32,000 nt of DNA from Synechocystis sp. PCC 6803 substr. PCC-P (GCF_000284455.1 NC_017039.1:3480001-3512000); one strand, 5' to 3'; shown: positions 116-29,807, counted from the first letter of the stretch. The notes: generated by a model from the sequence alone, not told the origin. Program-made: numbers and translations.

Positions 116-1234
116 TTAATCTAAAGAAATCCAATGACCATTTAGCCTTTGCACAATTGCTGTTGCCTCTTCATAACTTTTAGCGATCGCCCAAGTATGG
201 TGGGTTTTGCCATTACTTTCCCGCAGATAAATTTGATTGGGTAACAGGGGATGGTCAGCGGTGGTACGGAGATAATCTTTGTTCAATTTGCTATGGAATT
301 GGGAATAGATGGACGTATCCCAGGGTATTCCCCGGTCCCAACCCGGCACCACCAAAGGATTAGCTCCCAATAAAATTTGGCACGGCACTAACATGGGGCC
401 TTTATAAATAGCATAGGCGATCGGCATACAGGTATTAATTGCTAAGGTGACTAATTCACCATATTTATGCATTAATGATTGTTGCCAATATTGGGTAATT
501 AAGGTGAAATCTAACCCCGCACTTCCCCTAGTATCTAAGAGTTTATTGAACTTTTCATATTCCGTTCGCACAGTGGTGATTTCCCGTTGCCAAGCATATT
601 CCAATGGACTTTGACCAAAAACTATCTTGCCTGCTTTGAGTAATTTCCATTTTTCACCAATTTTTAAAACGTCCAATTTTGCCGGTGCTTGTAGAGTAAA
701 TTGATAATTCTTCCCTGGGTTTTCATTAGTTGCTTTAAATAGTTTGGCGAAGCTAGCCAGGGAACTAAAATGGCTAAAGGATTCGGGACGAGGAAATAGA
801 TAAAATCCTTGGTTTTTGAGTTGCATTACCCAAAAGTTACCAACATTATTTTTTTCTAGAACATCTTCTTGGTCAATTAACAGAGAAACCCGCTGACAAT
901 AAACTTCTAATATTTGGGGAGTTTCGTGATAAATGTCAATAATTTTACTGATGGGTAAATCTAATAGAGGAGGGGGTTGTTCAACTATTAAATGGGGATA
1001 GGCATCGGCGGGAAAGGCAGTGGGTCGGCTAACTACAGTCTCAATTTGACTGATTTTTTGTTTAAGGACTTCTATTTCTTTGATTAAGTCAGCATTACTC
1101 TGGGTCTGAACTTCATTATTTTTTTGTGCTTGAAAAAATCGTAGGGCCGCAAACTCCTGTTGTAACTTAAGTTGATTTTTTTCCAACTGAATCAGCTTAG
1201 CTTGATTTAATTTATCCGGTTGATTGCCAGCCAT
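116..1234 (-). CDS. Hypothetical soluble coiled-coil protein and last gene of the tubulin-like/actin-like operon. It carries the shared ~75-aa adaptor domain (aa ~130-208) and a unique ~165-aa C-terminal domain.
   Basis: 372-aa ORF with ATG start, 32 nt downstream of the preceding same-strand gene. The N-terminus is heptad-like and Q/K/E/L-rich (QAKLIQLEKNQLKLQQEFAAL ... LIKEIEVLKQKISQIE) with no TM segment. The motif FYLFP...APAKL...EKWKLLKAGKI aligns to the C-termini of the two upstream genes. HIP1 at 183-190. Confidence 0.7.
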   Translation of the reverse strand: MAGNQPDKLNQAKLIQLEKNQLKLQQEFAALRFFQAQKNNEVQTQSNADLIKEIEVLKQKISQIETVVSRPTAFPADAYPHLIVEQPPPLLDLPISKIIDIYHETPQILEVYCQRVSLLIDQEDVLEKNNVGNFWVMQLKNQGFYLFPRPESFSHFSSLASFAKLFKATNENPGKNYQFTLQAPAKLDVLKIGEKWKLLKAGKIVFGQSPLEYAWQREITTVRTEYEKFNKLLDTRGSAGLDFTLITQYWQQSLMHKYGELVTLAINTCMPIAYAIYKGPMLVPCQILLGANPLVVPGWDRGIPWDTSIYSQFHSKLNKDYLRTTADHPLLPNQIYLRESNGKTHHTWAIAKSYEEATAIVQRLNGHWISLD

Positions 1235-1266
1235 GTTGTTTAATTTATCTCTTACTGTTAATGATT

Positions 1267-2472
1267 TTAATTAAACACGCCTTTTTCGACTATTTGCCAA
1301 CGGCGATCGCCGACTAGGAGAAGTTTAGCGGGCTTGACTAGGTTAGGGTTTTGTAAATTGCCATAGCTGTCAAAAAAGGAACTGTTAGTCAGTAGTCTTT
1401 GCCAGCGGCTGAGCATTAGATTCGGAATTAACCAAATTTCTTCCCCAATGGTAAAGGCCAAATAGGAAGCTTGGCTCCTTTCTCCTTCTTCAAATTCCTG
1501 GCGATCGCCAAGACTAAGATTGCCTGCCTTGCCATGGATAACACTTTCTGTGGGCTTAAGGTATTGGAACTGGGATTGATCATCAAAAAAATTCTTATTG
1601 CCCTGGTTAAAATTAGTGATGCAATATTCTAAGCTGAGGCCAAAAGATTGGGTTGATTTTTCGGTATTTTCTACTTCTACTAAGGCATCTATAGCTTGTT
1701 CTTCATTGCTTATTGCATGGCCTTTGGCATCGATACAATTATTTTCTAAAAAATAATTATAAACATCTGCCTCGATAATCGAATCTGGTGTATTCGGTTG
1801 ATTTTCACCTGGTAAAACAATATCAGTTTGGGTAACATTAATAACTTTGCGTTTTGCACCCCTAGTAAGCCTAGAAGCGGTAATTTTTTTTAAAGTTTTG
1901 CTTCCCATTTGTTGGAGAGATTTATTTTTACTAGGCTTAGTTGAAAAAGCATTCAACAAGTCAACTGCCAACTTGCCGACGACGATACTCAAACCTATGG
2001 TGCCAGCAATAAACAAATAAATCAGAATTATCAAGTCTTGGCTTTTCTGAACACCAATTTCAGTGGTGGTTTCTGCCCTACCCGAATTTACTGTGGGGGT
2101 TGGCGTCGGCGCAATGGTTGGACTGGTCGACTCGTCTGGATAGTAAGGGGTATTATTAACTTGACTTTCCTTTGTTCGTAAACCAATCCAGCCCCTTTCA
2201 TCTACAGAAAAAGTGACAATTTTATACCAGCAAAAACCGTCATAAAATTTGGCATAGATGTCAGACAAAGCAAATCTTCTGCCAGCGGGAATTTCGGCAA
2301 TAATTTCACCATTAATATTGGGAATATCGTAAACGTCCAAATTAAAATCAGAAAATGACATCTGATAATCCCTCATTGCTGGACAAGGATTATTTTGCTG
2401 AGCATAAACTGGACTAATGCTCCGAATTATTACAACAATAAAAACAATTGCAAAATTTCTCAGTCTATTCAT
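1267..2472 (-). CDS. Bitopic membrane protein: signal peptide, bacterial SH3 (SH3b)-like periplasmic domain, P/T-rich linker, TM helix, basic cytoplasmic segment and the shared ~75-aa C-terminal adaptor domain.
   Basis: ATG at 2472 gives MNRLRNFAIVFIVVIIRSISPVYA/QQ (signal-peptide-like) and lies 8 nt after the upstream stop. The longest ORF start (2520) would overlap the upstream gene by 40 nt. SH3b-like segment: LDVYDIPNINGEIIAEIPAGRRFALSD...FCWYKIVTFSVDERGWIGL. Linker: PTIAPTPTPTV. TM: LIILIYLFIAGTIGLSIVVGKLAV, followed by a K/R-rich stretch (positive-inside). C-terminus: IWLIPN...KPAKLLLVGDRRWQIVEKGVF. Confidence 0.72.
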   Translation of the reverse strand: MNRLRNFAIVFIVVIIRSISPVYAQQNNPCPAMRDYQMSFSDFNLDVYDIPNINGEIIAEIPAGRRFALSDIYAKFYDGFCWYKIVTFSVDERGWIGLRTKESQVNNTPYYPDESTSPTIAPTPTPTVNSGRAETTTEIGVQKSQDLIILIYLFIAGTIGLSIVVGKLAVDLLNAFSTKPSKNKSLQQMGSKTLKKITASRLTRGAKRKVINVTQTDIVLPGENQPNTPDSIIEADVYNYFLENNCIDAKGHAISNEEQAIDALVEVENTEKSTQSFGLSLEYCITNFNQGNKNFFDDQSQFQYLKPTESVIHGKAGNLSLGDRQEFEEGERSQASYLAFTIGEEIWLIPNLMLSRWQRLLTNSSFFDSYGNLQNPNLVKPAKLLLVGDRRWQIVEKGVFN

Positions 2473-2480
2473 AAATTCAT

Positions 2481-3287
2481 TTATTTGTCGCCAAAACTCC
2501 CTTTTGAAGTTAGCTTCCAATGATTTTCTTTAATTAACTCTAAATGAGCAGGAAACTTGAGTTCAAATCTATCTGATACGGCATTCATTTCAAATATTCT
2601 ACTATCATTATTTAGTTTAATTAATCTTGATATTTTCGGCATGGTAGCATTGGGAATTAAGTAGAACTGATTATTGAATTGAAAAATAAGGTAAATAGCA
2701 TTGGCTTTATCTGAAATTGACTTAAACTCTATAATTGGTTCCCCATCAATAGCTCGTCTATTGTCTTTAGATTCTTCTGTTAGCTCAACAGGAATAAAGT
2801 TAGGATGATTGAAATAATCGACATTTAGTTGTGCGTACTGCTCAAGAATAATTTTTACTTGATCAATTTGTTCTTTTTGTTGCTCTATTTCCCCTACTTG
2901 AAGTTCATTTACATTAAAGCTTTTTGGCCGATTGTCGTGGTATCGATTGACTGAATTTAAATAATTTAACTGACTGCTCAGGTCGGCTACCTTTGTGTGT
3001 AAAGTAATATTTTTTTCTTTATATTTTTGAATTTGATTACTTAATACATTTAGTTGTTGTTGCACTTGATTGATATCGGAAGTATTCAAAAGTATTTTTT
3101 TTCCTTGTGTTTCTACGGTTTCACTGATTTTTTTGACTTTTCTGAAGTCTGATGAAAATCCACGCATTTTTTTGTTATTTAAAATACTAATAGCAATACT
3201 AACCATTGAAAATATGAAGGCAAGTATTGAAGCGGTAATGGAGATTGATATCCACGACTGTTCTGATATAAGTTTAAAAAATTCCAT
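2481..3287 (-). CDS. N-terminally TM-anchored coiled-coil protein with the shared ~75-aa C-terminal adaptor domain.
   Basis: 268-aa ORF, 49 nt downstream of the 1072-aa gene. TM: WISISITASILAFIFSMVSIAISIL, followed by NNKKMRGFSSDFRKVKK (cytoplasmic side). About 120 aa are heptad-rich (QQQLNVLSNQIQKYKEKNITLHTKVADLSSQLNYL). C-terminus: FYLIPN...KFPAHLELIKENHWKLTSKGSF. Very AT-rich with no HIP1. Confidence 0.72.
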   Translation of the reverse strand: MEFFKLISEQSWISISITASILAFIFSMVSIAISILNNKKMRGFSSDFRKVKKISETVETQGKKILLNTSDINQVQQQLNVLSNQIQKYKEKNITLHTKVADLSSQLNYLNSVNRYHDNRPKSFNVNELQVGEIEQQKEQIDQVKIILEQYAQLNVDYFNHPNFIPVELTEESKDNRRAIDGEPIIEFKSISDKANAIYLIFQFNNQFYLIPNATMPKISRLIKLNNDSRIFEMNAVSDRFELKFPAHLELIKENHWKLTSKGSFGDK

Positions 3288-3336
3288 GAGTTTGATTTTT
3301 TACCTAATTTAAATTCTATGAGACTATCAATTATAT

Positions 3337-6300
3337 TTAAGATTTAGACCACTTATCTGCAATTAAATCAATAAAACATTTAAGTACGATTAAAAAAGTT
3401 GGCTCTGCTTCAAATTCAGATACTGGGCCATGTTTCCGAAGACAAGCTTTCTTAATACGAGATTTCAAAATTACTTGATCGTCATTGCTCAACTGATAAA
3501 GTCCAGATCCATCAAAATTTCTCAATATATCAACTTCATTTATTCCTAATTCTTTGACTGTCTGATTAAAATTTTTAATATAATTTTCTAATTGGGAAAA
3601 AGACGCAATTTCAAACTGATTTATTTCTTCCCACTCATCATCAGTTTGTAATAAATCTTCAGATCCATAATCCTTACCATTGATTGTGCAAGACTCCCCT
3701 AGAAAAGGATAAGTTTTCTGGTTAGTTGCAATGCCCTGAAGCTTTTCTCCATCTTCTGGAACAACTAACCCTCCACACACTTCTTCTTTGGGATATTCAG
3801 ATAGCGTAGAAACCTCTGGATTGTATGATAGCCCAGATGCTTTTGTTAAAAGTCCCTGAAAAAGAATATTTACTTCCGATGATTCTGAAAATTCACCTGT
3901 TGGAGTTAGCCAATGTAGAAATCGAGAACCATTGCCACCAAAGAGAAAAGTAGTTGCTATTCCATCCGTGAAATGCTTATTTTGTACGTGTAGTATTCTT
4001 TGGATTAGTCCAACATAGTGAAATAGACCTCCGACAGCAAAACTAATTAGCGTTCTGAATTCACGATTTCTCCGCTTGTCGCAGTTGATAGCATAACCTT
4101 CCGATAAAATTCTTTCTGCATTACTTCTCATATAAGTATCAAGGGCAGAATCAAAGTTATTACCACTTAATACTTTCGCAACATTACGAGCAGCTTCTGG
4201 CGGCAAACCAAAAATTTCATCAGTAAAATTAAGATTACTTTCTAAAATGCGGTGAAAGATATTTCTTCCAGCAAATGGCACCGAAACTTGATGTATTAAA
4301 TTGTTATCTTGCCAAATTGAAATATCTGATGTGCCGCCTCCAATATCAATACAAGTTGTGTTAATGAGATTCTTTTTGAGAATATCGGCAAAAAATTGTG
4401 CAAAAGCAACGCTTTCAGTTCTTAGTCCTCTGTCATCTACGATGTGATTTTGTCCACTGACTAAATTCAACTGGTCTAGTACACGCTTCCAAGTAATCTG
4501 GTAACGATTGAGATCCATCGTGGAAAAAGCAGATGGATAAGAAATGGACCATTTTACTTCTCGAACTTCTTGCCATGCCGCTTGGGCAGCAATCATGCGT
4601 GCCAGTTGTGATAAAAATGGACGCTGATGCTGTACTTTTTCCCATTTAATGTTTGTTTTAATAAACTCTTTATTGAGTTCATATTTATCGAGCCGAGGAA
4701 AATATATTCGACCATCTACCACAAGCTCTGGAATATCTCCATCTATTTCTTGCCATCCCCTGGTGGTTAGCATTGCTAGCATGGGAGGATTATTACCTTC
4801 CGGTAAAAGCAGATCAGGAATGAAAAATTCTCGATAAATTACTGTTTGAATATCTTCCAAACTGTGGGTGATTTTCAGCAAATTAGTTTGGAGTTGCAAC
4901 CTTTCTGGAGTACCGCTAGAGCCTTTCCGCACGTAAACATTGGTAAATGACGTGCCGAAATCTAATCCCACCGTCCAAGTGGTGGCATTTCCGCCCTGGG
5001 CTTTGGGTATCCGCAGAGGAATAAGACCAAGCGGCTGGGCATTTTTATCAATCGCCAGGAGGACATCGGGGTAGGCATCACATTTCCAGTACTGATAACT
5101 TTCCTGACCCGATCGTCGATTTTCCGCTTGGGCATTGGGAGTGGGCTGATCCACCCGAAAAGCTAACTCACCATACTCTTCCGTGGTTTCCACTAGCAAG
5201 AAATATTCTTTCCATAAACTGGGAGGCACATTGGGCCAAAGCGCCAAGGTGGGAAAATCCTGCTTAATTTCATTTTCCGCCTTGAGGGGATATTCCTGGG
5301 ACATTGTATAGGCCACAGGCCGCTCAAATCCTGATATTTGCACCGTCAGCGAAATCCGTACCCCCGGGCCTTCAGGAGTGGAAACCGGGGCTAACTCCAC
5401 CTGTTTTTCCAAATCTTCACTGCTGAAATATTCCCGCAGAAAGGGCTTAAAGGGTAACAGAATGGTCAGATTATCCAGATTTAGCTTTTGGTCTAACCAA
5501 GTGCCCGGTAACAAACCCTTTGTTTTGTGGAAATAAAGATTATCTTGGAAAATATCCGCCGGGGTAGCAAAAATGGCATCGGAACGCCGGTGAAGATTAG
5601 GATCAAAATTGAGCAGAGGGGACGCGTCAATAACATTAATTTCCTGGGGTTGTTTACCTAACAGTCCTGGTAGTTGTACTGGATCAAGAATATAAAGTTG
5701 CTTACTGGGATTGCGACTGGCTGAAGCAATTACCCTCACATTGGAAGGATTTTGTACCGCCTCCGCTGGATATAAAGCATTCAACGGAGGTGGAGCTAAA
5801 GGAATACCAAACGGTAAATTTTTTGTAGTAGGTTGAAAGACATTACTGGTGGTGACCCCCAAATCTTGGATATAGTCGTCAATCATCCCCGAAACCCGTC
5901 CCGCCAAATCCTCATTTTGGGGATTACGCATCAAATTACCCTTCAAATTTTCCAACCAAGGCAACAACACCTCCTTTTGATTGGGAGCCAAACCATTGCC
6001 AATGGGATTAGTGAAAAAGCCATTTTTTATCCACGCAATACGGCGACTTAAATGCTCAGGAAAATAACCCGTGGGGCAAACAATGGTGGCCGGACTAGTC
6101 ATACCGATCGCCACGCCGTCCAGTTCAAACAAATACAACTCCGCCCAGGGACCATCGGGGGGAACCATGGCCAACACATTATCTTTATCGTTGGGGCGCA
6201 ATTTCCAAAGACAGCGGGCAAATTCCTTATCTTGATAATCCTTGAGCCGCACCTGGGTGGCAGTGATCTTAAGATTTAAATTTTCCGCCAGGGCTAAAGC

Positions 6301-6555
6301 CGTTAATAAACCTCGATATTGCTCAATTAACCAATCCCGACTGGGGTATTGTCGGTTGCGAAAAGCCGAAATTAATTGCAACGGCCGAGACCAAGGACTA
6401 GGGATAGAATTTACTTCCCGGTAGGCTCCTGCTTCAAACTCCAAACTATTACCCAAGCGGTTAAACAATCCCACTCCCTCGGCGATCCATTCCCCTGGAG
6501 CAGCGCCACCAGCAAAATCTTGATTAGTTTTGGGAAGTAGGGGTTGGTTAGTCAT
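3337..6555 (-). CDS. Large (1072 aa) two-part protein: an unrecognised ~525-aa N-terminal region plus a C-terminal actin/Hsp70/sugar-kinase-fold (ASKHA) ATPase domain.
   Basis: Uninterrupted 3.2-kb ORF. Phosphate-1 motif TWTVGLDFGTSFTNVY is encoded at 4933-4980. Phosphate-2 motif TCIDIGGGTSDISIW is at 4312-4356. The adenosine-like motif FLFGGNGSRFLHWL is at ~3905-3960. Order and spacing are as in Hsp70/ParM/MreB-type folds. I recognise nothing in the N-terminal half. Confidence 0.85.
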   Translation of the reverse strand: MTNQPLLPKTNQDFAGGAAPGEWIAEGVGLFNRLGNSLEFEAGAYREVNSIPSPWSRPLQLISAFRNRQYPSRDWLIEQYRGLLTALALAENLNLKITATQVRLKDYQDKEFARCLWKLRPNDKDNVLAMVPPDGPWAELYLFELDGVAIGMTSPATIVCPTGYFPEHLSRRIAWIKNGFFTNPIGNGLAPNQKEVLLPWLENLKGNLMRNPQNEDLAGRVSGMIDDYIQDLGVTTSNVFQPTTKNLPFGIPLAPPPLNALYPAEAVQNPSNVRVIASASRNPSKQLYILDPVQLPGLLGKQPQEINVIDASPLLNFDPNLHRRSDAIFATPADIFQDNLYFHKTKGLLPGTWLDQKLNLDNLTILLPFKPFLREYFSSEDLEKQVELAPVSTPEGPGVRISLTVQISGFERPVAYTMSQEYPLKAENEIKQDFPTLALWPNVPPSLWKEYFLLVETTEEYGELAFRVDQPTPNAQAENRRSGQESYQYWKCDAYPDVLLAIDKNAQPLGLIPLRIPKAQGGNATTWTVGLDFGTSFTNVYVRKGSSGTPERLQLQTNLLKITHSLEDIQTVIYREFFIPDLLLPEGNNPPMLAMLTTRGWQEIDGDIPELVVDGRIYFPRLDKYELNKEFIKTNIKWEKVQHQRPFLSQLARMIAAQAAWQEVREVKWSISYPSAFSTMDLNRYQITWKRVLDQLNLVSGQNHIVDDRGLRTESVAFAQFFADILKKNLINTTCIDIGGGTSDISIWQDNNLIHQVSVPFAGRNIFHRILESNLNFTDEIFGLPPEAARNVAKVLSGNNFDSALDTYMRSNAERILSEGYAINCDKRRNREFRTLISFAVGGLFHYVGLIQRILHVQNKHFTDGIATTFLFGGNGSRFLHWLTPTGEFSESSEVNILFQGLLTKASGLSYNPEVSTLSEYPKEEVCGGLVVPEDGEKLQGIATNQKTYPFLGESCTINGKDYGSEDLLQTDDEWEEINQFEIASFSQLENYIKNFNQTVKELGINEVDILRNFDGSGLYQLSNDDQVILKSRIKKACLRKHGPVSEFEAEPTFLIVLKCFIDLIADKWSKS

Positions 6556-6657: not shown

Positions 6658-8145
6658 CTAAAGTAAATCAAACAGGGCATGGGCTAAGCCAAAAACGCCT
6701 TTATCATAACTTTTGCCCTCATCTGCTAAACGGTTCTTGATTGTGTCCAGGCGATCGCCACTTTGCGCCGCTTGACTTTTCTCCTTATCAATAATTAATT
6801 GGTGGAGATGTTCACGATAACCGGGGTTTTGTTTCAGATCGTCCAAATGTTTGAGCTGAAAAAGTTGCTCGCCATTGACATGGGCAGAGGAAACCTGTTG
6901 GGCCCATTGCAAAAACTTCTTGGCCCAGGCTGTGAGTAGATCATTTTTGGCCACTTCCTGGGCATTGTCCACCAGGGGTTTATCCTCTTCCCCTGCCCTA
7001 AGAGCAAAAAAGTGTTGGAACCAAGGAGCACCCTTCGCAAACTTTTTACCTCCCAACTTCCGGGCCGCTTCCAACTCCAAGGAAAAGTTATAGAACCAAG
7101 CGTAGGCAAAGCGCACTCCCTTACTGAGGGCTAATTTAGCGATTTCGTCATCCGGCAAGTCCGTCCAAATCAGACTATTGATATCCCCCCGACTGATGTA
7201 GTGGGCCACCGTTTCCCCCATGGGTTGATCGAAACCATGGTTAGCGGCCAGGGCGGCGTACAGTTCGACAAAATGGGCCCCATTTTCCTGATTTTTGCCC
7301 CCAGTGTGGGAATCATACCTAGTTTGGGCATTGTCCCCAATCAAGTACACACTATCAAAACAGCCTTGGGACTGCTCCGTTAAGTATTGCAATGCCGCTT
7401 GGGTATTGAGGGCAAAAAAGCGAGTTTCGGCAAACACCGTTTGATCGCCGTCGTCAGGACGTTCAAAGGCAAAGTACGGTAACAACAAAGATGCGTGAAT
7501 ACGAACTCGAAGATTGTCCTGTTTTAACTGATTACTAATTAGTTTAGCCAGGGTAGGAACCCCGGAAGCTCCTGTTCCCCCAAAGATACTGCCAAAGAAA
7601 TGCACCACCACATCATTGCCCCGACCTACCCCTAAATCCGTGGTTAGATTATTAAATAGCTGTTGCCATCCCCCAGCCTGGGTTTGCTGGAGACTATCCA
7701 GTTCTAAACGACTCATCACCGCTGAACCGATGGGAGGCCGGCCCCGAAACCCCACTCCTAGATCGGCAGTTTGTTCCGCTGGACTGTAAAGGGCATCAAA
7801 TAATTTTGCTAAGGGAGGAGCACTGGCCCGCAAAGCTTGTTTGTTAAAAACCCCTGCTAAGTTGTTGTTATGAACTTGGTCCCCCAGGGGATTCCAGGTG
7901 CCGTAGTGGAAAAATTGTCCACTCATTAAGGGGCTTTTCCCTTGGCCAAAAGCTTTTTGGGCATCGTCGGTGGTACGGAAGTTGACCCCAGTTCTTTGAG
8001 AGTTGCCGTTAGAGGTATCTGCATCGACCAATAAAATTCTTAGTTCGGAGTTGTCGCCGTACAGCCCCAGGGAATGGAGAAAAATGGCCGCTTCCACGCA
8101 TTTAGCTCCACTGCCCCCCACACCGATGGCATAAATTTTTTGCAT
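6658..8145 (-). CDS. Divergent tubulin/FtsZ-superfamily GTPase (Tubulin_2 / FtsZ-like-type).
   Basis: 495-aa ORF. Motifs appear in canonical order: T1 IGVGGSGAK (aa 7-15, nt 8101-8127); T3-like GVGFRGRPPIGSA (aa ~130-142); T4 tubulin signature FGGTGASG (aa 188-195, nt ~7561-7584); then LLLPYF and YLIGDNAQ (aa ~267-274, compare tubulin xDNEA / FtsZ xPN). The ATG is 10 nt after the upstream stop, with a purine tract GGAGGTTAGAGG just upstream. HIP1 at 6751. Confidence 0.82.
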   Translation of the reverse strand: MQKIYAIGVGGSGAKCVEAAIFLHSLGLYGDNSELRILLVDADTSNGNSQRTGVNFRTTDDAQKAFGQGKSPLMSGQFFHYGTWNPLGDQVHNNNLAGVFNKQALRASAPPLAKLFDALYSPAEQTADLGVGFRGRPPIGSAVMSRLELDSLQQTQAGGWQQLFNNLTTDLGVGRGNDVVVHFFGSIFGGTGASGVPTLAKLISNQLKQDNLRVRIHASLLLPYFAFERPDDGDQTVFAETRFFALNTQAALQYLTEQSQGCFDSVYLIGDNAQTRYDSHTGGKNQENGAHFVELYAALAANHGFDQPMGETVAHYISRGDINSLIWTDLPDDEIAKLALSKGVRFAYAWFYNFSLELEAARKLGGKKFAKGAPWFQHFFALRAGEEDKPLVDNAQEVAKNDLLTAWAKKFLQWAQQVSSAHVNGEQLFQLKHLDDLKQNPGYREHLHQLIIDKEKSQAAQSGDRLDTIKNRLADEGKSYDKGVFGLAHALFDLL

Positions 8146-8155
8146 GGCTTAACCT

Positions 8156-8659
8156 CTAACCTCCATAAATTTTGCGTAATAACATTGACCCCGGTGGCAC
8201 GTAGCGCATGGATTTGGGAGTGGCTAGGGCCGTGGGCAGCCAGAAAATTAACAAGACATCGACAATGATGAAGCCCAGTAGCCAGAAAAATGGTTCTAGG
8301 TTACGGCTGTCATCAAACCAGCCGTTAAGGAAACTCAGACCCACTAGAGCCAACATGGTCACTACACCGAGGACAATGGCAAAAATCCACCAAAGACCGC
8401 CGGTGCTGAGCACGTCCTGGGCCTTGGTGAAGCCACTGCTGAGGGCTTTAGCAATCCAGAATAGGAGTAACAGCGCTCCCAATACATAAACCACGTAAAG
8501 GGTGGGGAATAAAATCTCTGCGGCCCATTTATCCAAGTTACCCCGGGATAAACTCAAAGGCAGTCCACTTCCCCCTAGCAACCATGGCTGTAACCCAAAA
8601 ATGACAATGGTGGCGATCGCTACTGTAACCACCAGGGCCACTATCTCCGTAATTTTCAT
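8156..8659 (-). CDS. Small integral membrane protein with 4 predicted TM helices.
   Basis: 167-aa ORF with four hydrophobic ~20-aa segments at aa ~5-23, 50-70, 88-110 and 122-145. It lies 57 nt downstream of the vWA gene and 10 nt upstream of the tubulin-like gene. HIP1 at 8613. Confidence 0.75.
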   Translation of the reverse strand: MKITEIVALVVTVAIATIVIFGLQPWLLGGSGLPLSLSRGNLDKWAAEILFPTLYVVYVLGALLLLFWIAKALSSGFTKAQDVLSTGGLWWIFAIVLGVVTMLALVGLSFLNGWFDDSRNLEPFFWLLGFIIVDVLLIFWLPTALATPKSMRYVPPGSMLLRKIYGG

Positions 8660-8716
8660 AACCCCTATCCTGCCGAACTAATACGTGAAGATTAGCAAAA
8701 ATTTTGATTAAGCAAT

Positions 8717-10126
8717 TTAATAGTGGCTATAGCCGAGACAAAACTTAACAGCATCTTGATTATTGGCCACCGCCCCCCGTAGTCCCGATACAAAAAGCAG
8801 TAAATTTTGGGTTCTGGCCCCGTCCGGGTTACTAATGTCCATATCCCAATCCCGCCACACTGCCTGATCCAATTGGCGATCGCCAAGGGTGACGTAAACT
8901 AATTTTCCTTGCCCCTGGGGTACCTGATTGCCATCAAAAACAGCGGTTAATAAAAGGCGGGCATTCTCTCCCCCGGGATTTTGAGCAATTTCTGCTTTTT
9001 TCACCGTCAAAAAGGGTTCAGACACATTGAAAAGATCTGGGGTTAGCTCTCCACCAGTGAGGGAAACGGTACTTTTAGAAGGAATATTTAACTCCAACGG
9101 TGGCAGAGGGCTAGCAGAATTTTCACCACAATTGGTTTGTTCGACCATAAGCCAATCCTTTTCCTGGTCTTGGTTTGGCCTCTGACGGTCTATGGAACCA
9201 ATGTCAATTACGCATTCTTGAATAGTGCCTTTTAAAGAACTGTTGTCTAGAGTCACCGTATCTGCTTGGCCAAGCTCAAAGGCGGAGGCCCGAAAGGCTT
9301 TATTGACATCTAAGGGAAGCTGACGGAATTCCCTTACCAATTCATCCACCGTTTCCTGGGGCCCCGTCATCAGGATAAAAAATGGTCTGCCCTTTTGATC
9401 CACGTCCTGGCCAGTGGTGTTGTAAACAAAAGTGGGATAACCAGCGTTGGCAGAATAAACATTGCCCCGGAACTGACTCCGAACTCCCAAGAGCACGGCT
9501 TTATAGTTGGGATTATTGTTTAACTCTTTGCTGATCAGGCCAGAAATTTGTCCCACAGCGGCATCGTCCGGTTCTAGGTCGGTGAGTAAAATTTTCAGAC
9601 TGCGGGTAGCACTGGTATTGGTGGAAGTGTTGCTATCCTCTTCACTCCCTTCATTTCTTTCCCCTTGATTATTAGATGTGCCGGCGGCCGGGCTTTCCAA
9701 TTCATAAAGTTGCCCCAAAGTACTGGAAACACAAGGATAATCCGCTATTGGCTGATCCCGACGACAATAAAAGGGCGCTTTACTGGCGGCCAGAAATTGG
9801 TTAGCAGAAATCGGTTGGGCCTGACTAATATTTTCATTGCTCCCCACCCGCCAATAGGAAGTGGGCAAATTTTTGTTTTGCAAAAGGGTGTGCAAAGAGG
9901 CGATCGCCTGGCCATAGCGACCACCAGGTTGACTGACAAAACCCACCATGGACTCACTGGCATCTACCCCCACCATTACATCCAGGTTTTCAAAAGGCCC
10001 AGGGGAAGATTGTTCGTCTCTGCGCTCTACCATCCCTTGGTCTGTTTCCACACAGGGTAAACCTCCCCTCTGGCCACAACCGGCTAATACTAGAGCCAAC
10101 AAAGAGAACAAAATCCAGCTTTTCAC
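8717..10126 (-). CDS. von Willebrand factor A (vWA) domain lipoprotein and first gene of the operon.
   Basis: The N-terminus MKSWILFSLLALVLAGCGQ is a signal peptide with lipobox L-A-G-C. MIDAS DxSxS motif VGVDASESM is at nt 9948-9977. The downstream KILLTDLEPDD matches the vWA 'LLTDG' strand. 469 aa. HIP1 at 8876 and 9900. Confidence 0.85.
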   Translation of the reverse strand: MKSWILFSLLALVLAGCGQRGGLPCVETDQGMVERRDEQSSPGPFENLDVMVGVDASESMVGFVSQPGGRYGQAIASLHTLLQNKNLPTSYWRVGSNENISQAQPISANQFLAASKAPFYCRRDQPIADYPCVSSTLGQLYELESPAAGTSNNQGERNEGSEEDSNTSTNTSATRSLKILLTDLEPDDAAVGQISGLISKELNNNPNYKAVLLGVRSQFRGNVYSANAGYPTFVYNTTGQDVDQKGRPFFILMTGPQETVDELVREFRQLPLDVNKAFRASAFELGQADTVTLDNSSLKGTIQECVIDIGSIDRQRPNQDQEKDWLMVEQTNCGENSASPLPPLELNIPSKSTVSLTGGELTPDLFNVSEPFLTVKKAEIAQNPGGENARLLLTAVFDGNQVPQGQGKLVYVTLGDRQLDQAVWRDWDMDISNPDGARTQNLLLFVSGLRGAVANNQDAVKFCLGYSHY

Positions 10127-10516: not shown

Positions 10517-13500
10517 TTGCCTAAATCTGTGAAAACCCTAGCCTACGCTAACCCTGCTGATCTATTCGCCTTTCCCTTGGATGACTTCCAACAAGAGGCG
10601 ATCGCCGCCCTGGACCAAGACCAGTCAGTGGTAGTGTGTGCCCCCACAGGTTCCGGTAAAACGGTAGTCGGAGAATATGCCATCTATCGAGCCATTGCCA
10701 GGGGAAAAAGGGTTTTTTATACTACGCCTTTGAAGGCCTTGTCCAATCAAAAAATTCGGGATTTCCAGGAAAAATTAGAGAAGTTAGGCCTAGAAAATGC
10801 GGCCCAACTAGTGGGCTTAATTACCGGTGATACGGTGATCAATGCCGATGCCCCGGTGGTGGTAATGACCACGGAAATTTTTAGGAATATGCTCTACGAA
10901 ACCCCCATTGGGGAAGTAGGCACTTCTTTGGAGGACGTGGAAACAGTGGTGTTTGACGAAGTCCATTACATCAGCGACCGGGGTCGGGGCACTGTGTGGG
11001 AAGAGTCAATCATTTATTGTCCCAGCACCATTCAACTGGTGGGTTTGTCCGCCACCATTGGCAACCCGGAACAGTTGACCGAATGGATTAATCAAGTCCG
11101 CACTGGGGTTTCCCTGAAAGTATTACGCCAGGGAGAGCAACGTAATGATTCCCCCCCCTGTGTGCTGGTCAATTCCGATTTCCGTCCTGTGCCCCTCACC
11201 TTTCACTACAGCACCCGCAAAGGTTTATTTCCCCTGTTGAATGAGAAAAAAACGGGAGTTAATACTCGCCTATTGCCCAAGGCTGGGAATAAAAATACCC
11301 GTTCTGGTAAAAATCGCCGCATGCGCCGGGAGGATTGTCCCTATCCCCTGTTGGTGATGCAACAGCTACAGGAACGGAATTTGTTGCCGGTAATCTATGT
11401 AATTTTTAGTCGGCGGGGCTGTGAACAGGCGGCCCAATCCCTGGAAGATTTATCTTTGGTGGAACCGGCGGAGCAGGAAAGTATCCAACTGCAACTACTG
11501 GATTTTTTCTTTGGCAAAAATCCCCTACTGCGGCAGAAGTTGGAACGGGATTTGGCCAATGGTTTGCCGGATTTAGTCCAAGCGGTCGTTGCCTATTTGG
11601 ATCATCCCCAGGACAGTGAAGCGGCCCAAAGACTTTTGACTGCGTTGGCGATCGATCCAGAAGGTATGTTCAAACTCTGGGGTTGGATTGCCCAATCTTC
11701 TCCCATGACTAGGTTCGAGCAGATTGAACCCCTTTTACGGGGCATTGCGGTGCACCACGCCGGCATTTTGCCAGATATGAAAACCCTGGTGGAAAAGTTA
11801 TTTGAGCAGGGCTTGATCAAAGTGGTATTTGCCACAGCCACCCTCTCGGCGGGGATTAATATGCCTGCTCGCACCACGGTGATTTCTGCCCTATCCAAAC
11901 GTACCAATGAAGGTCATGCCATGCTCAGTCCTTCGGAATTTTTACAAATTGCGGGGCGGGCTGGGCGGCGGGGTATGGATACGGAGGGCCATGTAATTAC
12001 GGTGCAAACTCCCTTTGAAGGGGCCAATGAGGCCTCTTACTTAGCTCTAGCGGAGGCGGAACCGTTAAAAAGTTGGTTTACCCCTTCCTATGGCATGGTG
12101 CTGAATCTGTTGCAAAAACATGATTTGGAAGAAGTAAAAAGTTTGCTGGAACGGAGCTTTGCCGAATACTTGGCCCAGTTTGCCCTGGAACCCACTAAGG
12201 TGGCGATCGCCGAAACGGTGAAAAAATTATCCCAATTGGATATTAAGTTGGCAGGCATTGGGGAAAAGGATTTACGCAGTTACGAAAAATTCCGGGGGCG
12301 ACTGCGGGAAGAACAAAGGTTGCTGAAAATTCTGGAAGAACAGGCGGAAAAAGAACGAAAGCAACAGTTAAAGGATCAACTCAAAACCCTGGCACCGGGT
12401 CAGCTTTTATATCTCAAAGGTCGCCACGTCAAAATCCATCAACCTCGTTTAGCGGTCATTGTTGCCCCCCTGGCCCCCGCCCATAATTTGCCCCAATGGT
12501 GCTGCCTGGGCAGTGATAACCGTTGGTATCATGTCACTGTGGGGGATATTTATGCGGTGCCCATTGGTAATCTGTCCCCAGCCCAATGGCAGCATTTAAC
12601 CCCGCCCCCAGCGGAACTTTTGGCTCCCGGTAAATCGGTGAAGGGAGATGAGGAAACATTGGCGATCGCCGCAGGCCTAGACCCCCAAACCTATCCCTTA
12701 GAACCCAGCCCAGAACTGGTAGAACAACAGGCCAGGGTAGACCATGTGGAAAAACTGTTGGCAGTACATCCCCTGGCTAGCCAAAAACATCCCGGCAAAC
12801 TTTTGGAGCAGTTCCACCAACGGCAAGAACTACGTAAAACCCTAAGCAAACGACAACAGGAGTATGATCGCCTACAATCCCGTCAATCCTACTATTGGCA
12901 GGAGTTCCTAGACTTAATTGACATTTTGCAGGAAATGGAAGCCCTGGAGGAATATACCCCCACACTGTTGGGGGAAGTGGCCGCCACCCTGAGGGGGGAA
13001 AATGAATTGTGGTTGGGTTTGGCCCTGATTTCCGGCAAATTCAACGATTTGGAACCAGAACAGTTGGCCGCCGCCGCCAGTGCCCTCATTACGGAAACTC
13101 CCCGTTCCGATGCTTGGACTGATTTCAAGCCTTCCCCTGTAGTGTTGGCCGCTCTCCGTCCCAGTAATGATTTGTTTGGCCTATTATTTTGCCTTAAACA
13201 CCCTCAACCTCCCCTTGCCCTCTGGCAGGCTATGACGGTGGCGGATCATTTGCAACGGCTTAATCTCTGGGATCTACGACGTAAATTGATCAAAGCTCAA
13301 AATCAACGGGCGATCGCCATTCCCCTTTGGTTGGAAGTGGATTTTATGGGCTTGGTGGAACAGTGGGCATTGGGCATGGAGTGGGAAAACCTCTGCCGCC
13401 AGACCAGTTTGGATGAGGGGGATTTAGTCCGACTTTTCCGGCGCACGGTGGATCTGCTTTGGCAAATTCCCCAGGTGCCCCACCTTTCCCCCCGACTAAA

Positions 13501-13549
13501 ACGGAATGCTCGCATTGCGGTGCAACAAATGAAGCGTTTTCCCCTCTAA
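10517..13549 (+). CDS. Ski2-like (HelY/Mtr4-type) DEAD/DEAH-box superfamily-2 RNA helicase with a DSHCT-like C-terminal domain.
   Basis: Motif I CAPTGSGKT, motif II VVFDEVHYISD, motif III SAT and motif VI QIAGRAGRRG are present. The C-terminus LVEQWALGMEWENLCRQTSLDEGDLVRLFRRTVDLLWQI is typical of DSHCT. There is no in-frame ATG near the 5' end, so the start is TTG 10517 or GTG 10529. Confidence 0.9.
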   Translation: MPKSVKTLAYANPADLFAFPLDDFQQEAIAALDQDQSVVVCAPTGSGKTVVGEYAIYRAIARGKRVFYTTPLKALSNQKIRDFQEKLEKLGLENAAQLVGLITGDTVINADAPVVVMTTEIFRNMLYETPIGEVGTSLEDVETVVFDEVHYISDRGRGTVWEESIIYCPSTIQLVGLSATIGNPEQLTEWINQVRTGVSLKVLRQGEQRNDSPPCVLVNSDFRPVPLTFHYSTRKGLFPLLNEKKTGVNTRLLPKAGNKNTRSGKNRRMRREDCPYPLLVMQQLQERNLLPVIYVIFSRRGCEQAAQSLEDLSLVEPAEQESIQLQLLDFFFGKNPLLRQKLERDLANGLPDLVQAVVAYLDHPQDSEAAQRLLTALAIDPEGMFKLWGWIAQSSPMTRFEQIEPLLRGIAVHHAGILPDMKTLVEKLFEQGLIKVVFATATLSAGINMPARTTVISALSKRTNEGHAMLSPSEFLQIAGRAGRRGMDTEGHVITVQTPFEGANEASYLALAEAEPLKSWFTPSYGMVLNLLQKHDLEEVKSLLERSFAEYLAQFALEPTKVAIAETVKKLSQLDIKLAGIGEKDLRSYEKFRGRLREEQRLLKILEEQAEKERKQQLKDQLKTLAPGQLLYLKGRHVKIHQPRLAVIVAPLAPAHNLPQWCCLGSDNRWYHVTVGDIYAVPIGNLSPAQWQHLTPPPAELLAPGKSVKGDEETLAIAAGLDPQTYPLEPSPELVEQQARVDHVEKLLAVHPLASQKHPGKLLEQFHQRQELRKTLSKRQQEYDRLQSRQSYYWQEFLDLIDILQEMEALEEYTPTLLGEVAATLRGENELWLGLALISGKFNDLEPEQLAAAASALITETPRSDAWTDFKPSPVVLAALRPSNDLFGLLFCLKHPQPPLALWQAMTVADHLQRLNLWDLRRKLIKAQNQRAIAIPLWLEVDFMGLVEQWALGMEWENLCRQTSLDEGDLVRLFRRTVDLLWQIPQVPHLSPRLKRNARIAVQQMKRFPL

Positions 13550-14032: not shown

Positions 14033-15340
14033 TTAAACTTTGGGTTTTAGCTTGATATTTAGTTTAGGGACAAAGCTTTTGATTAAAACTGATTCTATTT
14101 CCTGCAGATAATGTTTAGGTAGCGAAGTTATGAAAGCAATTTTGCCATCTTCTATTAAGTCAAAATCAGATTGTCTGTGATGAGAATACCAACGCTTTTG
14201 AAGGTTGACTGACATTCCAATATATTGAATTGCATCATCTTTGTTGAGGACAAAATAAATTCCAGGCTGTTCTGGTAGTTCGTCCCTTTCTTCAATTGGT
14301 ACTGCTGACAATTTTGCGGGATTAATTTGAGTTATTTCCAAAAAAATTCCATCGTAAATGAATTTTGAAATATATTCAATAAAGGAAAGGAATAAAAAAT
14401 CAGAGCTATTCCAGGAATTTAATTCTTCTGGTAATTCTGAATCTAAAGGATCAAATTCCTGACCATCGAGGACACACATAAAAGAAGCGATTATGTTTTC
14501 CCATTCATAAACATATTTTTTAGATTTATAGCGGTTCTGCCATTTATCTAGCCAATTTTGTGCATCATTCCAAGCTTCTGGATAATACCATTCTTGCCAT
14601 AATTGTTTTAGTTTATTCGCCGTCGGTGGTTTTGGTGGATCGCAATATTCGCGGTCGTAAATATTTTTCCATGCTTTCCTAAATATTGAGTATATTTCAC
14701 TAGGTAACTCTGGGATTTCAAATTCTTTTTGCTGATAGCTTTGGATTTCTGGATCAATATCAATATATTTAGTGATTTCGTTGGATTCGTTGTTTTGACC
14801 CATCTTCATCTCTACTTGTGTCAATCCAGATTCTAATAAAGGAATAAAGTTGCTAGTTTCTAAAAATTCTCCATCAATAACTTCATCATTTATTTCTTCT
14901 TCTTTGGGTGTGTTAAGCAAAAGTGACAACTGTAATCCCAGCGCCCCAGAAATCCATTCTCTACCCGGAAACAACAAGTCAACTTGATATTTGTCTTCCA
15001 AAAGTAAACTAAAATTACCCTTAATTGAGTTGAGGTAATATTTTTTGACTTCAGATATTATTTCTTCGTAAAATTGTGACAAGATTTTAACTTCATTTGC
15101 CGCTTTTCCTTTGGTGTGTAAATAAGGCTTAACAACTACACTACCATGCTCACTTAAGGGATCTAGTTCCTCTGTTATCCACTCCTTAACATCTTCAATA
15201 TCAAGGGAGCCTAATCCTTTATTTTCTCGACGTAAAAGTTCTGTCTCTATTGCTTTTCGGCAAATATCAGACCAATTTGCGTCTACCTTTGCCATTCGAC
15301 TTTTTAAATCATCGGTCACATAAACATTGAGTGCAGGCAT
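14033..15340 (-). CDS. GIY-YIG nuclease-domain protein with an RHH/antitoxin-like N-terminus and a ~300-aa unknown middle region, encoded on an AT-rich island.
   Basis: C-terminus: PGIYFVLNKDDAIQYIGMSVNLQKRWYSHH...LQEIESVLIKSFVPKLN. This gives GIY-x10-YIG plus the conserved R, H, E and N in canonical order (nt ~14033-14290). N-terminus from ATG 15340: MPALNVYVTDDLKSRMAKVDANWSDICRKAIETELL, which is ribbon-helix-helix-like. The longest ORF start at 15421 adds 27 non-descript aa. Hand-counted GC is 18-33% per 60 nt, against ~55% in adjacent ilvD. No HIP1. Confidence 0.8.
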   Translation of the reverse strand: MPALNVYVTDDLKSRMAKVDANWSDICRKAIETELLRRENKGLGSLDIEDVKEWITEELDPLSEHGSVVVKPYLHTKGKAANEVKILSQFYEEIISEVKKYYLNSIKGNFSLLLEDKYQVDLLFPGREWISGALGLQLSLLLNTPKEEEINDEVIDGEFLETSNFIPLLESGLTQVEMKMGQNNESNEITKYIDIDPEIQSYQQKEFEIPELPSEIYSIFRKAWKNIYDREYCDPPKPPTANKLKQLWQEWYYPEAWNDAQNWLDKWQNRYKSKKYVYEWENIIASFMCVLDGQEFDPLDSELPEELNSWNSSDFLFLSFIEYISKFIYDGIFLEITQINPAKLSAVPIEERDELPEQPGIYFVLNKDDAIQYIGMSVNLQKRWYSHHRQSDFDLIEDGKIAFITSLPKHYLQEIESVLIKSFVPKLNIKLKPKV

Positions 15341-15546
15341 GGTTAAACCATAAGTAGAAGTATAAAGAAGATTATACGCATATTCTCTGGGTGCGACAAC
15401 CAAAATTATGCGCACATGCAATTATTCTTTACAAAACTTAGGTTCTATCTCCCTAAGTTGACTTTTTGTGGCCAGGCTTGAGCAAAGGGGAATAAACCAT
15501 CGACAATGGACAGAAGCATAGATTCGCTACGAGACAGGAGAGAACA

Positions 15547-28958: not shown

Positions 28959-29807
28959 CTAAACGCCACAGTAAGAACGGATAATTTCATCAAGAGACGT
29001 GTCAATAGGAGCGTACATTCTAGCTCGTTTCAAGGCACTAAAGTCATGCTCAATATCATTTAAATCAGGAGAATATTTCGGCAAAAAAAGAACTTCATGA
29101 CCTGCTTCTTTAGCCAATTCTTTAATGGCAGTTTTACGATGAATAGGAGCATTATCCATTATTAATATTGATGGAATGTCGAGGGAGGGTAGCAAATATA
29201 ATTTTAACCATCCTTCAAAGCCTTCTGCATTCAAACTCCCGGTAAAAACCATCGGCGCAATCAAATCTTTTTTTCCTTTTCTTCTCCCTGCTACTAGATT
29301 TTCTCTGACTCCCCTTTTTCCTTGTCTATCTCCATAAACTTTTTTTCCTTTTTTTGACCAGGCATAAATACAAGCCTGGATTGCTTCGAATCCAGATTCA
29401 TCTATGTAAACTATAGCTTGACTACCATAGAGCTTAATTAGTTCTCTTAACATTCTATAGTACTTAACTCGTTCCTCCCGGTTTCTTTCTCGATAACGTA
29501 GTTCTTTTTTTTTTCTGTTTATTTTCATTTTCTTTAATGCGTAATATACGGCACTCGGCCTCACTCCAAATTTCTTGGCTCTGTCTATCAATCTTGCATC
29601 GGGATTTTCTTCTACGTCTTTTTTTAGAGCTTCCCAGTCTAATTTCCTATGGCGACGCTCTACTTTTGTTGGGCTTAAATCTACTCTATTTAACCATCTG
29701 TATATCGAGGCTTTTCCTATTTTATATATCTTGGAAGCCTCAGTTATTTTTCCTCCAGCTTCTATATAAGCTACTACCCTTTGCCTTAAATCTAAACTGT
29801 AAGCCAT
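28959..29807 (-). CDS. IS630/Tc1-family (ISY100) transposase.
   Basis: 282 aa. The N-terminal HTH region is MAYSLDLRQRVVAYIEAGGKITEASKIYKIGKASIYRWLNR. The DDE domain has YIDESGF ... LIMDNAPIHR ... FLPKYSPDLNDIEHDFSALK. Confidence 0.92.
   Translation of the reverse strand: MAYSLDLRQRVVAYIEAGGKITEASKIYKIGKASIYRWLNRVDLSPTKVERRHRKLDWEALKKDVEENPDARLIDRAKKFGVRPSAVYYALKKMKINRKKKELRYRERNREERVKYYRMLRELIKLYGSQAIVYIDESGFEAIQACIYAWSKKGKKVYGDRQGKRGVRENLVAGRRKGKKDLIAPMVFTGSLNAEGFEGWLKLYLLPSLDIPSILIMDNAPIHRKTAIKELAKEAGHEVLFLPKYSPDLNDIEHDFSALKRARMYAPIDTSLDEIIRSYCGV

Follow-up and report, generated by a model that had tools for sequence, protein, structure and literature searches.

The minus strand of a 32,000-nucleotide (nt) stretch of the genome of Synechocystis sp. 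PCC 6803 substr. PCC-P (GCF_000284455.1, NC_017039.1:3480001-3512000; hereafter the window, with all positions counted from its first letter) encodes, at 3337-6555, a protein of 1072 amino acids (aa) that is the prototype of a large, unnamed family of cytoplasmic ATPases of ~1,100 residues. Its C-terminal half is predicted to adopt the fold common to actin and Hsp70 (the ASKHA superfamily), and its gene lies directly downstream of a gene for a divergent tubulin-like GTPase. In the reading that we favour, to which we assign a probability of roughly 55%, both proteins constitute an FtsA/FtsZ-like module of two nucleoside triphosphatases (NTPases) within an envelope-anchored machine, leaning towards a conflict system.

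The 1072-aa protein and its ATPase core

An earlier note on this DNA had placed a 1072-aa protein at 3337-6555. The open reading frame (ORF) is present, with the correction that it is located on the minus strand, where 1072 codons run uninterrupted from an ATG start (the coordinates include the stop codon); the plus-strand reading of the same interval is riddled with stops. The assignment is based on the ORF list, the translation, full-length homologs down to 21% identity, and an AlphaFold2 model of the full protein, which was built on a 33-sequence alignment and has a mean predicted local distance difference test score (pLDDT) of 85.9 and a predicted TM-score (pTM) of 0.76. From its N- to its C-terminus the protein is composed of an N-terminal module (aa 1 to ~330; 5566..6555), a beta-rich middle module (aa ~331-520; 4996..5565), an ASKHA ATPase core (aa ~521-935; 3751..4995) and a C-terminal alpha/beta tail of ~135 aa (aa 936-1072; 3337..3750), all on the minus strand. 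The earlier note had described the entire C-terminal half as an ATPase; this description is upheld for the fold and the motifs, and is refined to a core of aa ~525-935 that is followed by the tail. The latter, in which DSSP places helices at aa 987-1002, 1024-1039 and 1053-1071, is the most divergent part of the protein and shows the lowest ortholog identity.

Every nucleotide-binding motif of the superfamily is intact in the core. The three motifs quoted in the earlier note, VGLDFGTS (aa 529-536), IDIGGGTSD (aa 736-744) and FGGNGSR (aa 872-878), are found in this order and are conserved across 33-50 homologs. They correspond to the phosphate-1 motif GLDFGTSFT (aa 530-538; 4942..4968, minus strand), with an invariant G530; to the phosphate-2 motif DIGGGTSD (aa 737-744; 4324..4347, minus strand), which aligns to DLGGGTFD of DnaK and DIGGGTMD of FtsA; and to the adenosine motif FLFGGNGSR (aa 870-878; 3922..3948, minus strand), which is collinear with ILVGGQ of DnaK. 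A fourth collinear motif, the connect-2-like YPKEEVCGG (aa 921-929), is the counterpart of NPDEAVAIG of Hsp70. Order and spacing of the motifs parallel those of E. coli DnaK (taken from NC_000913.3), with positions 532, 737, 870 and 921 in the window protein versus 8, 194, 338 and 366 in DnaK. In alignments of 33, 50 and 40 homologs, extending down to 21% identity, residues D532, F533, T538, E714, D744 and G874 are invariant. Positions G534 (nearly invariant in the 40-sequence alignment and fully so in the other two), D737, G739 and T742, as well as G873, N875 and G876 of the adenosine motif, are invariant or nearly so. Because of this conservation, together with the predicted actin/Hsp70 fold, the motifs are not considered chance matches.

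When the AlphaFold2 model was compared with the PDB using Foldseek, 337 matches were obtained at E<=1e-3. The first 50 of these consist entirely of ASKHA proteins, namely the nucleotide-binding domains (NBDs) of Hsp70, DnaK and BiP as well as MreB, BeeR, MamK and ParM, with a probability of 1.0 and alignments over ~450-500 columns at 10-15% identity. The best TM-scores, normalised to the target, were those of the Hsp70 NBDs (0.52-0.55, versus 0.42-0.51 for MreB and ParM). The actin/Hsp70-fold ATPase that had been proposed for the C-terminal half is thus recovered by structure comparison. According to the predicted structure and its matches, the core has the ASKHA fold with its two RNase-H-like lobes, and on this prediction the actin-fold claim stands.

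Similarity at the sequence level is concentrated around phosphate-2, where a profile of the family matches PDB chains of FtsA, BeeR and MreB. Using hhalign, the segments SYPSAFS, TES-A-A and DIGGGTSDIS were aligned to TVPAYFN, NEPTAAA and DLGGGTFDIS of DnaK (probability 71%), and the region from phosphate-2 onward was aligned to E. coli FtsA (probability 90%). Across 40 diverse members, sub-threshold Pfam matches were found to MreB (34 members), FtsA (33) and EutA (19), together with fainter signals for Hydantoinase_A (6) and Ppx-GppA (2). The window protein itself reaches 25.1 bits with Pfam FtsA (cut-off 31.8), 15.4 bits with MreB (cut-off 27) and 18.6 with the NCBIfam FtsA model (cut-off 175.9), and these matches cover only the phosphate-2 hairpin. 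Canonical MreB or FtsA membership is ruled out by the fact that every Pfam and NCBIfam score remains below its cut-off, and canonical Hsp70 membership by the absence of PF00012 at E<=1 from the window protein and from the 40 diverse members. The protein falls into no Pfam, NCBIfam or PADLOC family and represents a family of its own, new and without a name, in the ASKHA superfamily. The earlier observation that its architecture is unlike that of DnaK or MreB holds.

This N-terminal half, of which ~525 aa had been reported as unrecognisable, is a candidate new fold. Modelled alone, aa 1-520 are confidently predicted (pLDDT 87.5, pTM 0.79), and Foldseek searches with this separate model returned nothing significant, the top PDB entry being Ig-like noise (E 0.02, probability 0.3) and the top BFVD entry having an E of 0.037. 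The region is also free of Pfam, NCBIfam and PADLOC matches, so that a confidently predicted half of a large protein is left without a detectable relative. Rather than forming a single domain, it splits into at least two modules, aa 1 to ~330 and a beta-rich part of aa ~335-520. The first is predicted to be alpha/beta beyond aa 52, with a fold that has no match; aa 1-52 are disordered yet hold the conserved motifs LLPK (aa 6-9) and SIPSPWSRPL (aa 50-59; family form SIPxxWARPL). The second has its DSSP strands at aa 386-514, modelled with pLDDT >90. In the 50-sequence alignment, residues P8, P52, W55, G82, P121, W175, P184 and W200 are invariant in the N-terminal module, and P368, P435, P441, W448, P496 and G510 in the remainder of this half. 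Many family members of 690-800 aa start at query position ~295-395, and therefore lack the module of aa 1 to ~330 while keeping the beta-rich one, which always accompanies the ATPase core, short forms included.

The family is much larger than simple searches suggest. A word-indexed search gave just 59 matches, all of them cyanobacterial "hypothetical proteins", and the small cyanobacterial family that these implied was corrected by an exhaustive profile search of 1.84 billion representatives, which yielded 2,972 cluster representatives at E<=1e-3 and 1,108 at E<=1e-30. A genome scan seeded on the phosphate-2 motif alone mostly returned genes of FtsA size (L010-L041), which were discarded. Most members of the family are 1,050-1,150 aa long. 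They were found in at least four phyla: among the cyanobacteria in Synechocystis, Snowella, Nostoc and Richelia, with plasmid copies in Picosynechococcus, [Synechococcus] NIES-970 and Gloeothece, and furthermore in Sericytochromatia, Caulobacter, Clostridiales/Oscillospiraceae, Longimicrobiales, Longimicrobium and Rhodocaloribacter. No member bears a functional name, and the precomputed Pfam domains are none beyond an occasional faint FtsA.

Two members deserve mention for their architecture. P0037 (1418 aa, from an ENA metagenome) carries a Ser/Thr protein-kinase domain fused in front of the conserved LLPK start, which recalls the kinase fusions of planctomycete FtsZl1 proteins. In Richelia sinica FACHB-800 (locus L001, 16765-18963), a second, N-truncated ASKHA paralog of 732 aa is present in the operon; it is 54% identical to the long copy, and four small proteins, paralogs of one another, are interspersed.

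The tubulin-like partner and the gene cassette

The gene directly upstream of the ASKHA gene (6658..8145, minus strand) encodes a 495-aa protein with the motifs GVGGSGAK (T1-like) and GGTGASG (T4-like). By its sequence features it is probably a genuine, divergent member of the tubulin/FtsZ superfamily and a putative GTPase: Pfam Tubulin_2 (PF13809) matches all nine partner orthologs (best E 2.2e-10) and PF00091 six of the nine, and the Gloeothece ortholog is named "tubulin-like domain-containing protein" in RefSeq. The length of the partner is 495-509 aa in the window and at L001, L003, L004, L042, L047 and L048, where L003 and L004 are distant metagenomic loci at 23-25% identity and L042 is located on the Synechocystis chromosome CP007542.1.

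The earlier note had called the tubulin-like neighbour unusual, which was right and understated, as the pairing is kept across phyla and is sometimes replaced by a fusion. In every full-length locus with a readable upstream region, the tubulin-like gene is found directly upstream of the ASKHA gene. This applies to the window, Richelia, two metagenomic cyanobacterial loci, Synechocystis, and the Picosynechococcus (L047) and Gloeothece (L048) plasmids, as well as to the more distant loci on a 4.8-Mb metagenomic contig (L049), in Longimicrobiales (L009) and in Clostridiales (L007). Two tubulin::ASKHA fusions, P0104 (1605 aa) and P0163 (1341 aa), are the representatives of separate 50%-identity clusters. 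They display the same layout, a complete tubulin-like protein followed by a linker of ~15 residues and an intact ASKHA N-terminus (LLPxL motif), so that in both the tubulin C-terminus is joined to the N-terminal end of the ASKHA protein; on its contig, P0104 reads through as one unbroken ORF. On L049 (8443-9886) the tubulin-like gene is split into ORFs of 245 and 191 aa, representing a frameshift/pseudogene or an assembly error.

The ASKHA gene is the fourth in a tightly spaced run of genes on the same strand, which encode a lipoprotein, a protein with four transmembrane segments, the tubulin-like protein, the ASKHA protein and three small proteins; the gaps between the first four genes are 57, 10 and 102 nt. 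The 469-aa lipoprotein (8717..10126, minus strand) was recognised by its lipobox LAGC and gives LptM-type signal/lipobox matches. It also possesses vWA/MIDAS-like motifs, DASES (of the DxSxS type) and LTDLE, and its residues D55, S59, T182 and D183 are invariant. The following gene (8156..8659, minus strand) encodes a 167-aa protein with four transmembrane segments predicted by a hydropathy scan, orthologs of which were found at L001, L004 and L042 by BLAST and at L003 by profile search. These first four genes have the same order at L001, L003, L004, L042, L047, L048, L049 and L009, except that the first gene is divergently oriented in Richelia and Gloeothece. A MotB/OmpA-type peptidoglycan-binding protein ends the cassettes of L003, L004, L009 and L049, preceded by a long coiled-coil protein in L004, L009 and L049; it is absent from the window cassette and from the Synechocystis ortholog locus.

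Downstream of the ASKHA gene, on the minus strand, are the genes for a 268-aa protein with an N-terminal transmembrane segment and a coiled coil (2481..3287), a 417-aa protein with two transmembrane-like segments (1267..2520), and a 372-aa protein with a coiled coil (116..1234). All three share a domain of ~110 aa, C-terminal in the first two and internal in the third, which displays the signature [YW]-L-[IFVM]-P ... KPAK ... W-x-L ... G and is joined to differing N-terminal transmembrane or coiled-coil parts. The "three adaptor proteins" of the earlier note therefore exist, with the correction that they and their Synechocystis and Richelia counterparts are paralogs built around this one common domain.

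Comparison of the window with the Synechocystis locus L042 revealed that the ASKHA gene is a recombinant mosaic with a junction near aa 550. The lipoprotein, the four-transmembrane protein and the tubulin-like protein are 87%, 92% and 93% identical between both loci, and the first ~550 aa of the ASKHA protein are ~92% identical to the ortholog. From ~aa 550, some 20 residues past phosphate-1, identity drops to 46-74%, and the GC content of third codon positions drops from ~48% to ~23%. The 268-aa protein occupies a variable slot, its gene being replaced at L042 by different genes (307 and 593 aa), while the last two downstream genes regain identity (73% and 87%). The low-GC block (116..4905, minus strand) includes the ASKHA gene from ~aa 550 (its 3' ~60%) and the three downstream genes, with a gene GC content of 0.30-0.42 (downstream 0.30-0.39) versus 0.48-0.50 in the upstream cassette genes. 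Since the changes in identity and GC content cover both, the ATPase part and the adjoining small proteins were exchanged as one block, and the N-terminal half stayed with the tubulin-like gene. At L042, a Uma2-family endonuclease and an MNT/HEPN (NTP_transf_2 plus HEPN) toxin-antitoxin pair are inserted between the tubulin-like and the ASKHA genes (8482-9925), at a site that corresponds to the 102-nt gap in the window.

Several other genes were noted in the window. A Ski2-like DEAD/DSHCT helicase of 1010 aa with a TTG start (10517-13549, plus strand) is divergent from the cassette, and the ~390-nt intergenic region between them presumably holds the cassette promoter. A 462-aa ORF (14033-15421, minus strand), located in a GC trough of 0.39-0.42, ends in a GIY-YIG nuclease domain (Pfam E 2.5e-7), and its ~380 N-terminal residues are without assignment; it may be a mobile or defence-type gene. 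An IS630-family transposase (HTH_Tnp_IS630 and DDE_3; 28959-29807, minus strand) lies in a second low-GC stretch at 28-31 kb. Finally, a 361-aa ORF (30876-31961, minus strand) matches only the C-terminal part of HSP90/HtpG (Pfam positions 265-487); as it ends ~40 nt short of the window edge, this gene may be truncated or its start miscalled.

Proposed role and rival readings

In the favoured reading, the tubulin-like GTPase and the ASKHA ATPase would form a physical pair that follows the FtsA/FtsZ logic. The GTPase would self-assemble, and the N-terminal module of the 1072-aa protein would dock onto it. Such docking is proposed because of the geometry of the fusions, the co-inheritance of this half with the tubulin-like gene in the mosaic, and the observation that N-truncated forms have no tubulin gene beside them, as seen for the 732-aa paralog of Richelia and for P0125 (756 aa), which is solitary. 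The core would bind and hydrolyse ATP to switch its conformation or oligomeric state, and would engage the variable adaptors at the membrane, with which it shares the exchanged block. The assembly would be tied to the envelope by the lipoprotein, the four-transmembrane protein and, where present, the coiled-coil and MotB/OmpA-type proteins, an association suggested by the lipobox, the transmembrane segments and the OmpA/MotB similarity. In doing so, the core might polymerise like MreB and ParM, clamp like Hsp70 or tether like FtsA.

For the role of this machine we lean towards conflict (anti-phage or abortive) over housekeeping membrane remodelling, and this is the weakest step of the reading. 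The leaning is based on the swapped ATPase-plus-adaptor block, the variable array of paralogs, the plasmid copies, the patchy cross-phylum spread, and neighbouring defence genes, which include PbeC (Richelia), SoFic and a type I restriction-modification system (L003), a Mokosh-like helicase (L009) and a type IIG restriction-modification system (L049). The MNT/HEPN pair and Uma2 gene inside the Synechocystis operon and the kinase fusion P0037 were also listed in this direction. Taken to its furthest, this would make the cassette a horizontally mobile, envelope-spanning immune or abortive-infection machine built on an actin-fold/tubulin-fold pair, a second FtsA/FtsZ-like couple unrelated to division, in which the small membrane proteins and the exchangeable ATPase give specificity and NTPase assembly triggers disruption of the envelope or a membrane, or compartmentalisation; we put this forward as a tentative and rather doubtful extension.

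A number of observations weigh against the favoured reading, several of them against its conflict component. PADLOC-DB v2 gave no match at E<=0.01 for any of the seven cassette proteins, by which a catalogued defence system is ruled out, and the absence of a tblastn match among 50,697 phage records likewise rules out a phage origin. The cassette is flanked in the window by housekeeping genes, and the association with defence genes is anecdotal, being drawn from five loci. The window partner scores 20.8 bits with Tubulin_2, under the cut-off of 27; a PDB profile search with this protein found no tubulin or FtsZ, and its hhalign comparison with E. coli FtsZ is weak (probability 3.5%), though the GGTGASG loop is aligned. 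The vWA fold of the lipoprotein is seen at the motif level only, with no Pfam vWA match and no PDB profile match. Synteny and gene fusion are indirect evidence for binding of the two NTPases, and the ASKHA member of L049 has a different N-terminus while still adjoining the tubulin-like gene; it follows that N-terminal docking is not general, or that the parts co-evolve.

The core could alternatively be a chaperone or clamp of the Hsp70 type, which would drive ATP-dependent remodelling or thresholding of small variable or tubulin-like proteins without binding a polymer. The structural superpositions, headed by Hsp70 NBDs, and the parallels of SYPSAFS, TES-A-A, DIGGGTSDIS and YPKEEVCGG to TVPAYFN, NEPTAAA, DLGGGTFDIS and NPDEAVAIG speak for this, as does an invariant K637 that could be the counterpart of the catalytic lysine of Hsp70. 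Also in its favour are a 1,626-aa COG0443 (DnaK) protein, amb2961, in a Magnetospirillum FtsZl1 operon, and the tubulin and HSP70 themes of conflict systems (Kaur et al. 2020, PMC7159879). However, PF00012 is lacking throughout, Pfam and NCBIfam reveal neither an Hsp70-type substrate-binding domain nor GrpE or DnaJ in the cassette, hhalign prefers FtsA to DnaK, and the DO-GTPase that defines the systems of Kaur et al. is absent, so that we regard this possibility as rather unlikely. We judge it unlikely, too, that the protein self-polymerises into a filament of the ParM/MreB/MamK/BeeR type parallel to a tubulin-like filament, with a cytoskeletal or membrane-remodelling function instead of conflict. 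This would extend the idea of Makarova and Koonin, who predicted that FtsZl1 operons remodel membranes (PMC2875224), and it is consistent with the Foldseek and profile matches to MreB, BeeR, MamK, ParM and FtsA, with the sub-threshold MreB and FtsA signals in 33-34 of the 40 members, with the envelope-associated partners, and with the long coiled-coil protein of the distant loci. On the other hand, the ~650 extra residues that decorate the fold may block the canonical longitudinal contacts, all Pfam scores are under the gathering thresholds, and a housekeeping cytoskeleton is not usually so patchily distributed, plasmid-borne and internally recombined.

Two further explanations appear very improbable. 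The earlier note had suggested a comparison with SrfB, which would make the protein a distant homolog in an SrfABC-type toxin complex, i.e. a secreted virulence or toxin component. Its size is similar (the 114-kDa SrfB of Xenorhabdus is encoded in a three-gene operon with an SrfA of ~51 kDa), and the Pfam family PF07520 matched two of the 40 diverse members faintly (best E 0.063), but the other 38 gave no match and the window protein matched neither PF07520 nor NCBIfam SrfB at E<=1. A tblastn search with a proteobacterial member found no SrfB-annotated gene on plasmids, there is no signal peptide and there are no secretion genes, and the conserved partners (tubulin-like, four-transmembrane, lipoprotein) are not those of srfABC. 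The SrfB lead was thus abandoned, membership being ruled out by the Pfam and NCBIfam scans of the window protein, the Pfam scan of the 40 members and the tblastn search. It is just as hard to credit that the protein is a metabolic ASKHA enzyme with accessory domains, whether a kinase, a phosphatase or a reactivase, of the type of sugar kinases, EutA, hydantoinase or Ppx/GppA: the faint EutA, Hydantoinase_A and Ppx-GppA matches that hint at it do not extend beyond the generic phosphate-2 hairpin, structure comparison ranks Hsp70 and actin-like proteins at the top and not kinases, and no metabolic genes are conserved in the cassette.

Comparison with known systems

Actin-fold and tubulin-fold NTPases are the two great cytomotive families, and their best-known bacterial partnership is that of FtsA and FtsZ in cell division. 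Similar to this couple, the cassette places the genes of an actin-fold ATPase and a tubulin-fold GTPase side by side, presumably acting at the membrane, and FtsA is the best Pfam, NCBIfam, PDB-sequence and hhalign match of the phosphate-2 region. The differences are considerable: the gene order is reversed, the 1072-aa protein is 2.5 times the size of FtsA and has an N-terminal half of ~520 aa without a matched fold, the partner belongs to the Tubulin_2/FtsZl1 branch and not to FtsZ itself, and the cassette is accessory, patchy and plasmid-borne, with periplasmic and variable components. The NBD of Hsp70/DnaK offers the best superpositions (TM-score up to 0.55) and four collinear motifs at similar spacing, whereas identity in the structural alignments is 12-14%, PF00012, a substrate-binding domain and co-chaperones are missing, and the 1072-aa protein has large N-terminal additions. 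SrfB of the SrfABC operon resembles it as a ~1,000-aa protein from a small operon, but has no significant sequence relationship to it and differs in partners and phyletic range.

Tubulin- and HSP70-containing operons have been placed among GTPase-centred conflict systems (Kaur, Burroughs, Iyer and Aravind 2020, PMC7159879), for whose HSP70 components ATP-dependent remodelling or thresholding was proposed. As in the present cassette, with the vWA-like motifs of its lipoprotein, NTPases of the tubulin and Hsp70 superfamilies are accompanied there by vWA, transmembrane and variable components, in proposed regulated assemblies that act in conflict. Those systems are defined by one or two P-loop DO-GTPases of the TRAFAC clade together with GAP1 (PMC7159879). 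In the cassette, a Walker A motif was found in none of the seven proteins, none of which has a GTPase Pfam match either; a DO-GTPase/GAP1 system is thus rejected because no P-loop protein is present, a comparison that covered the GTPase criterion, the model libraries used having no entry for GAP1. FNIII is also absent, and the cassette differs further in that both folds occur together, not only in cyanobacteria but in other phyla as well, with an ASKHA protein that is no canonical Hsp70.

The closest parallel is provided by the FtsZl1/vWA/OmpA operons, which were predicted to encode membrane-remodelling machines (Makarova and Koonin 2010, PMC2875224). These operons, common in cyanobacteria, combine a Tubulin_2-type protein with vWA-type, membrane and OmpA/MotB proteins; the putative counterparts here are the tubulin-like protein, which Tubulin_2 matches in all nine orthologs but below the cut-off in the window copy, the lipoprotein with its vWA-like motifs, the membrane proteins and, at L003, L004, L009 and L049, the MotB/OmpA-type protein. 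Classical FtsZl1 proteins, however, are ~900-1,130 aa long and comprise a tubulin domain, a coiled coil and a helical domain (PMC2875224), whereas the tubulin-like protein of the cassette has ~500 aa without a long C-terminal extension and is followed by a separate ASKHA protein of ~1,100 aa; in addition, the vWA domain is seen here at the motif level only. The text of Makarova and Koonin mentions no actin/Hsp70-fold component; their Additional file 5 alone lists an FtsZl1 operon of Magnetospirillum magneticum AMB-1 (amb2957-amb2961) that ends with the COG0443 (DnaK/HSP70) protein amb2961 (PMC2875224). This operon may be an independent case in which a tubulin-like protein is paired with a giant Hsp70-like one. 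In the open-access literature we found no description of an operon that combines a tubulin-like protein with a giant actin/Hsp70-like one, although subscription-only papers could hold one.

With ~3,000 clusters, several phyla, plasmid copies and natural fusions, the family points to a second, widespread and unstudied partnership between an actin-fold and a tubulin-fold NTPase, and it provides thousands of "hypothetical proteins" with a name and with a hypothesis that can be put to the test. The natural fusions make the partnership directly testable, and Synechocystis and Picosynechococcus are tractable hosts in which to ask whether cytoskeletal proteins were recruited into conflict or envelope-remodelling machines. 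The membrane-remodelling prediction made in 2010 for FtsZl1 would thereby gain its missing ATPase component. The most fitting description of the cassette is that of a novel variation on the FtsZl1-type tubulin/vWA/OmpA systems, one that couples a short tubulin-like GTPase to a giant actin/Hsp70-fold ATPase.

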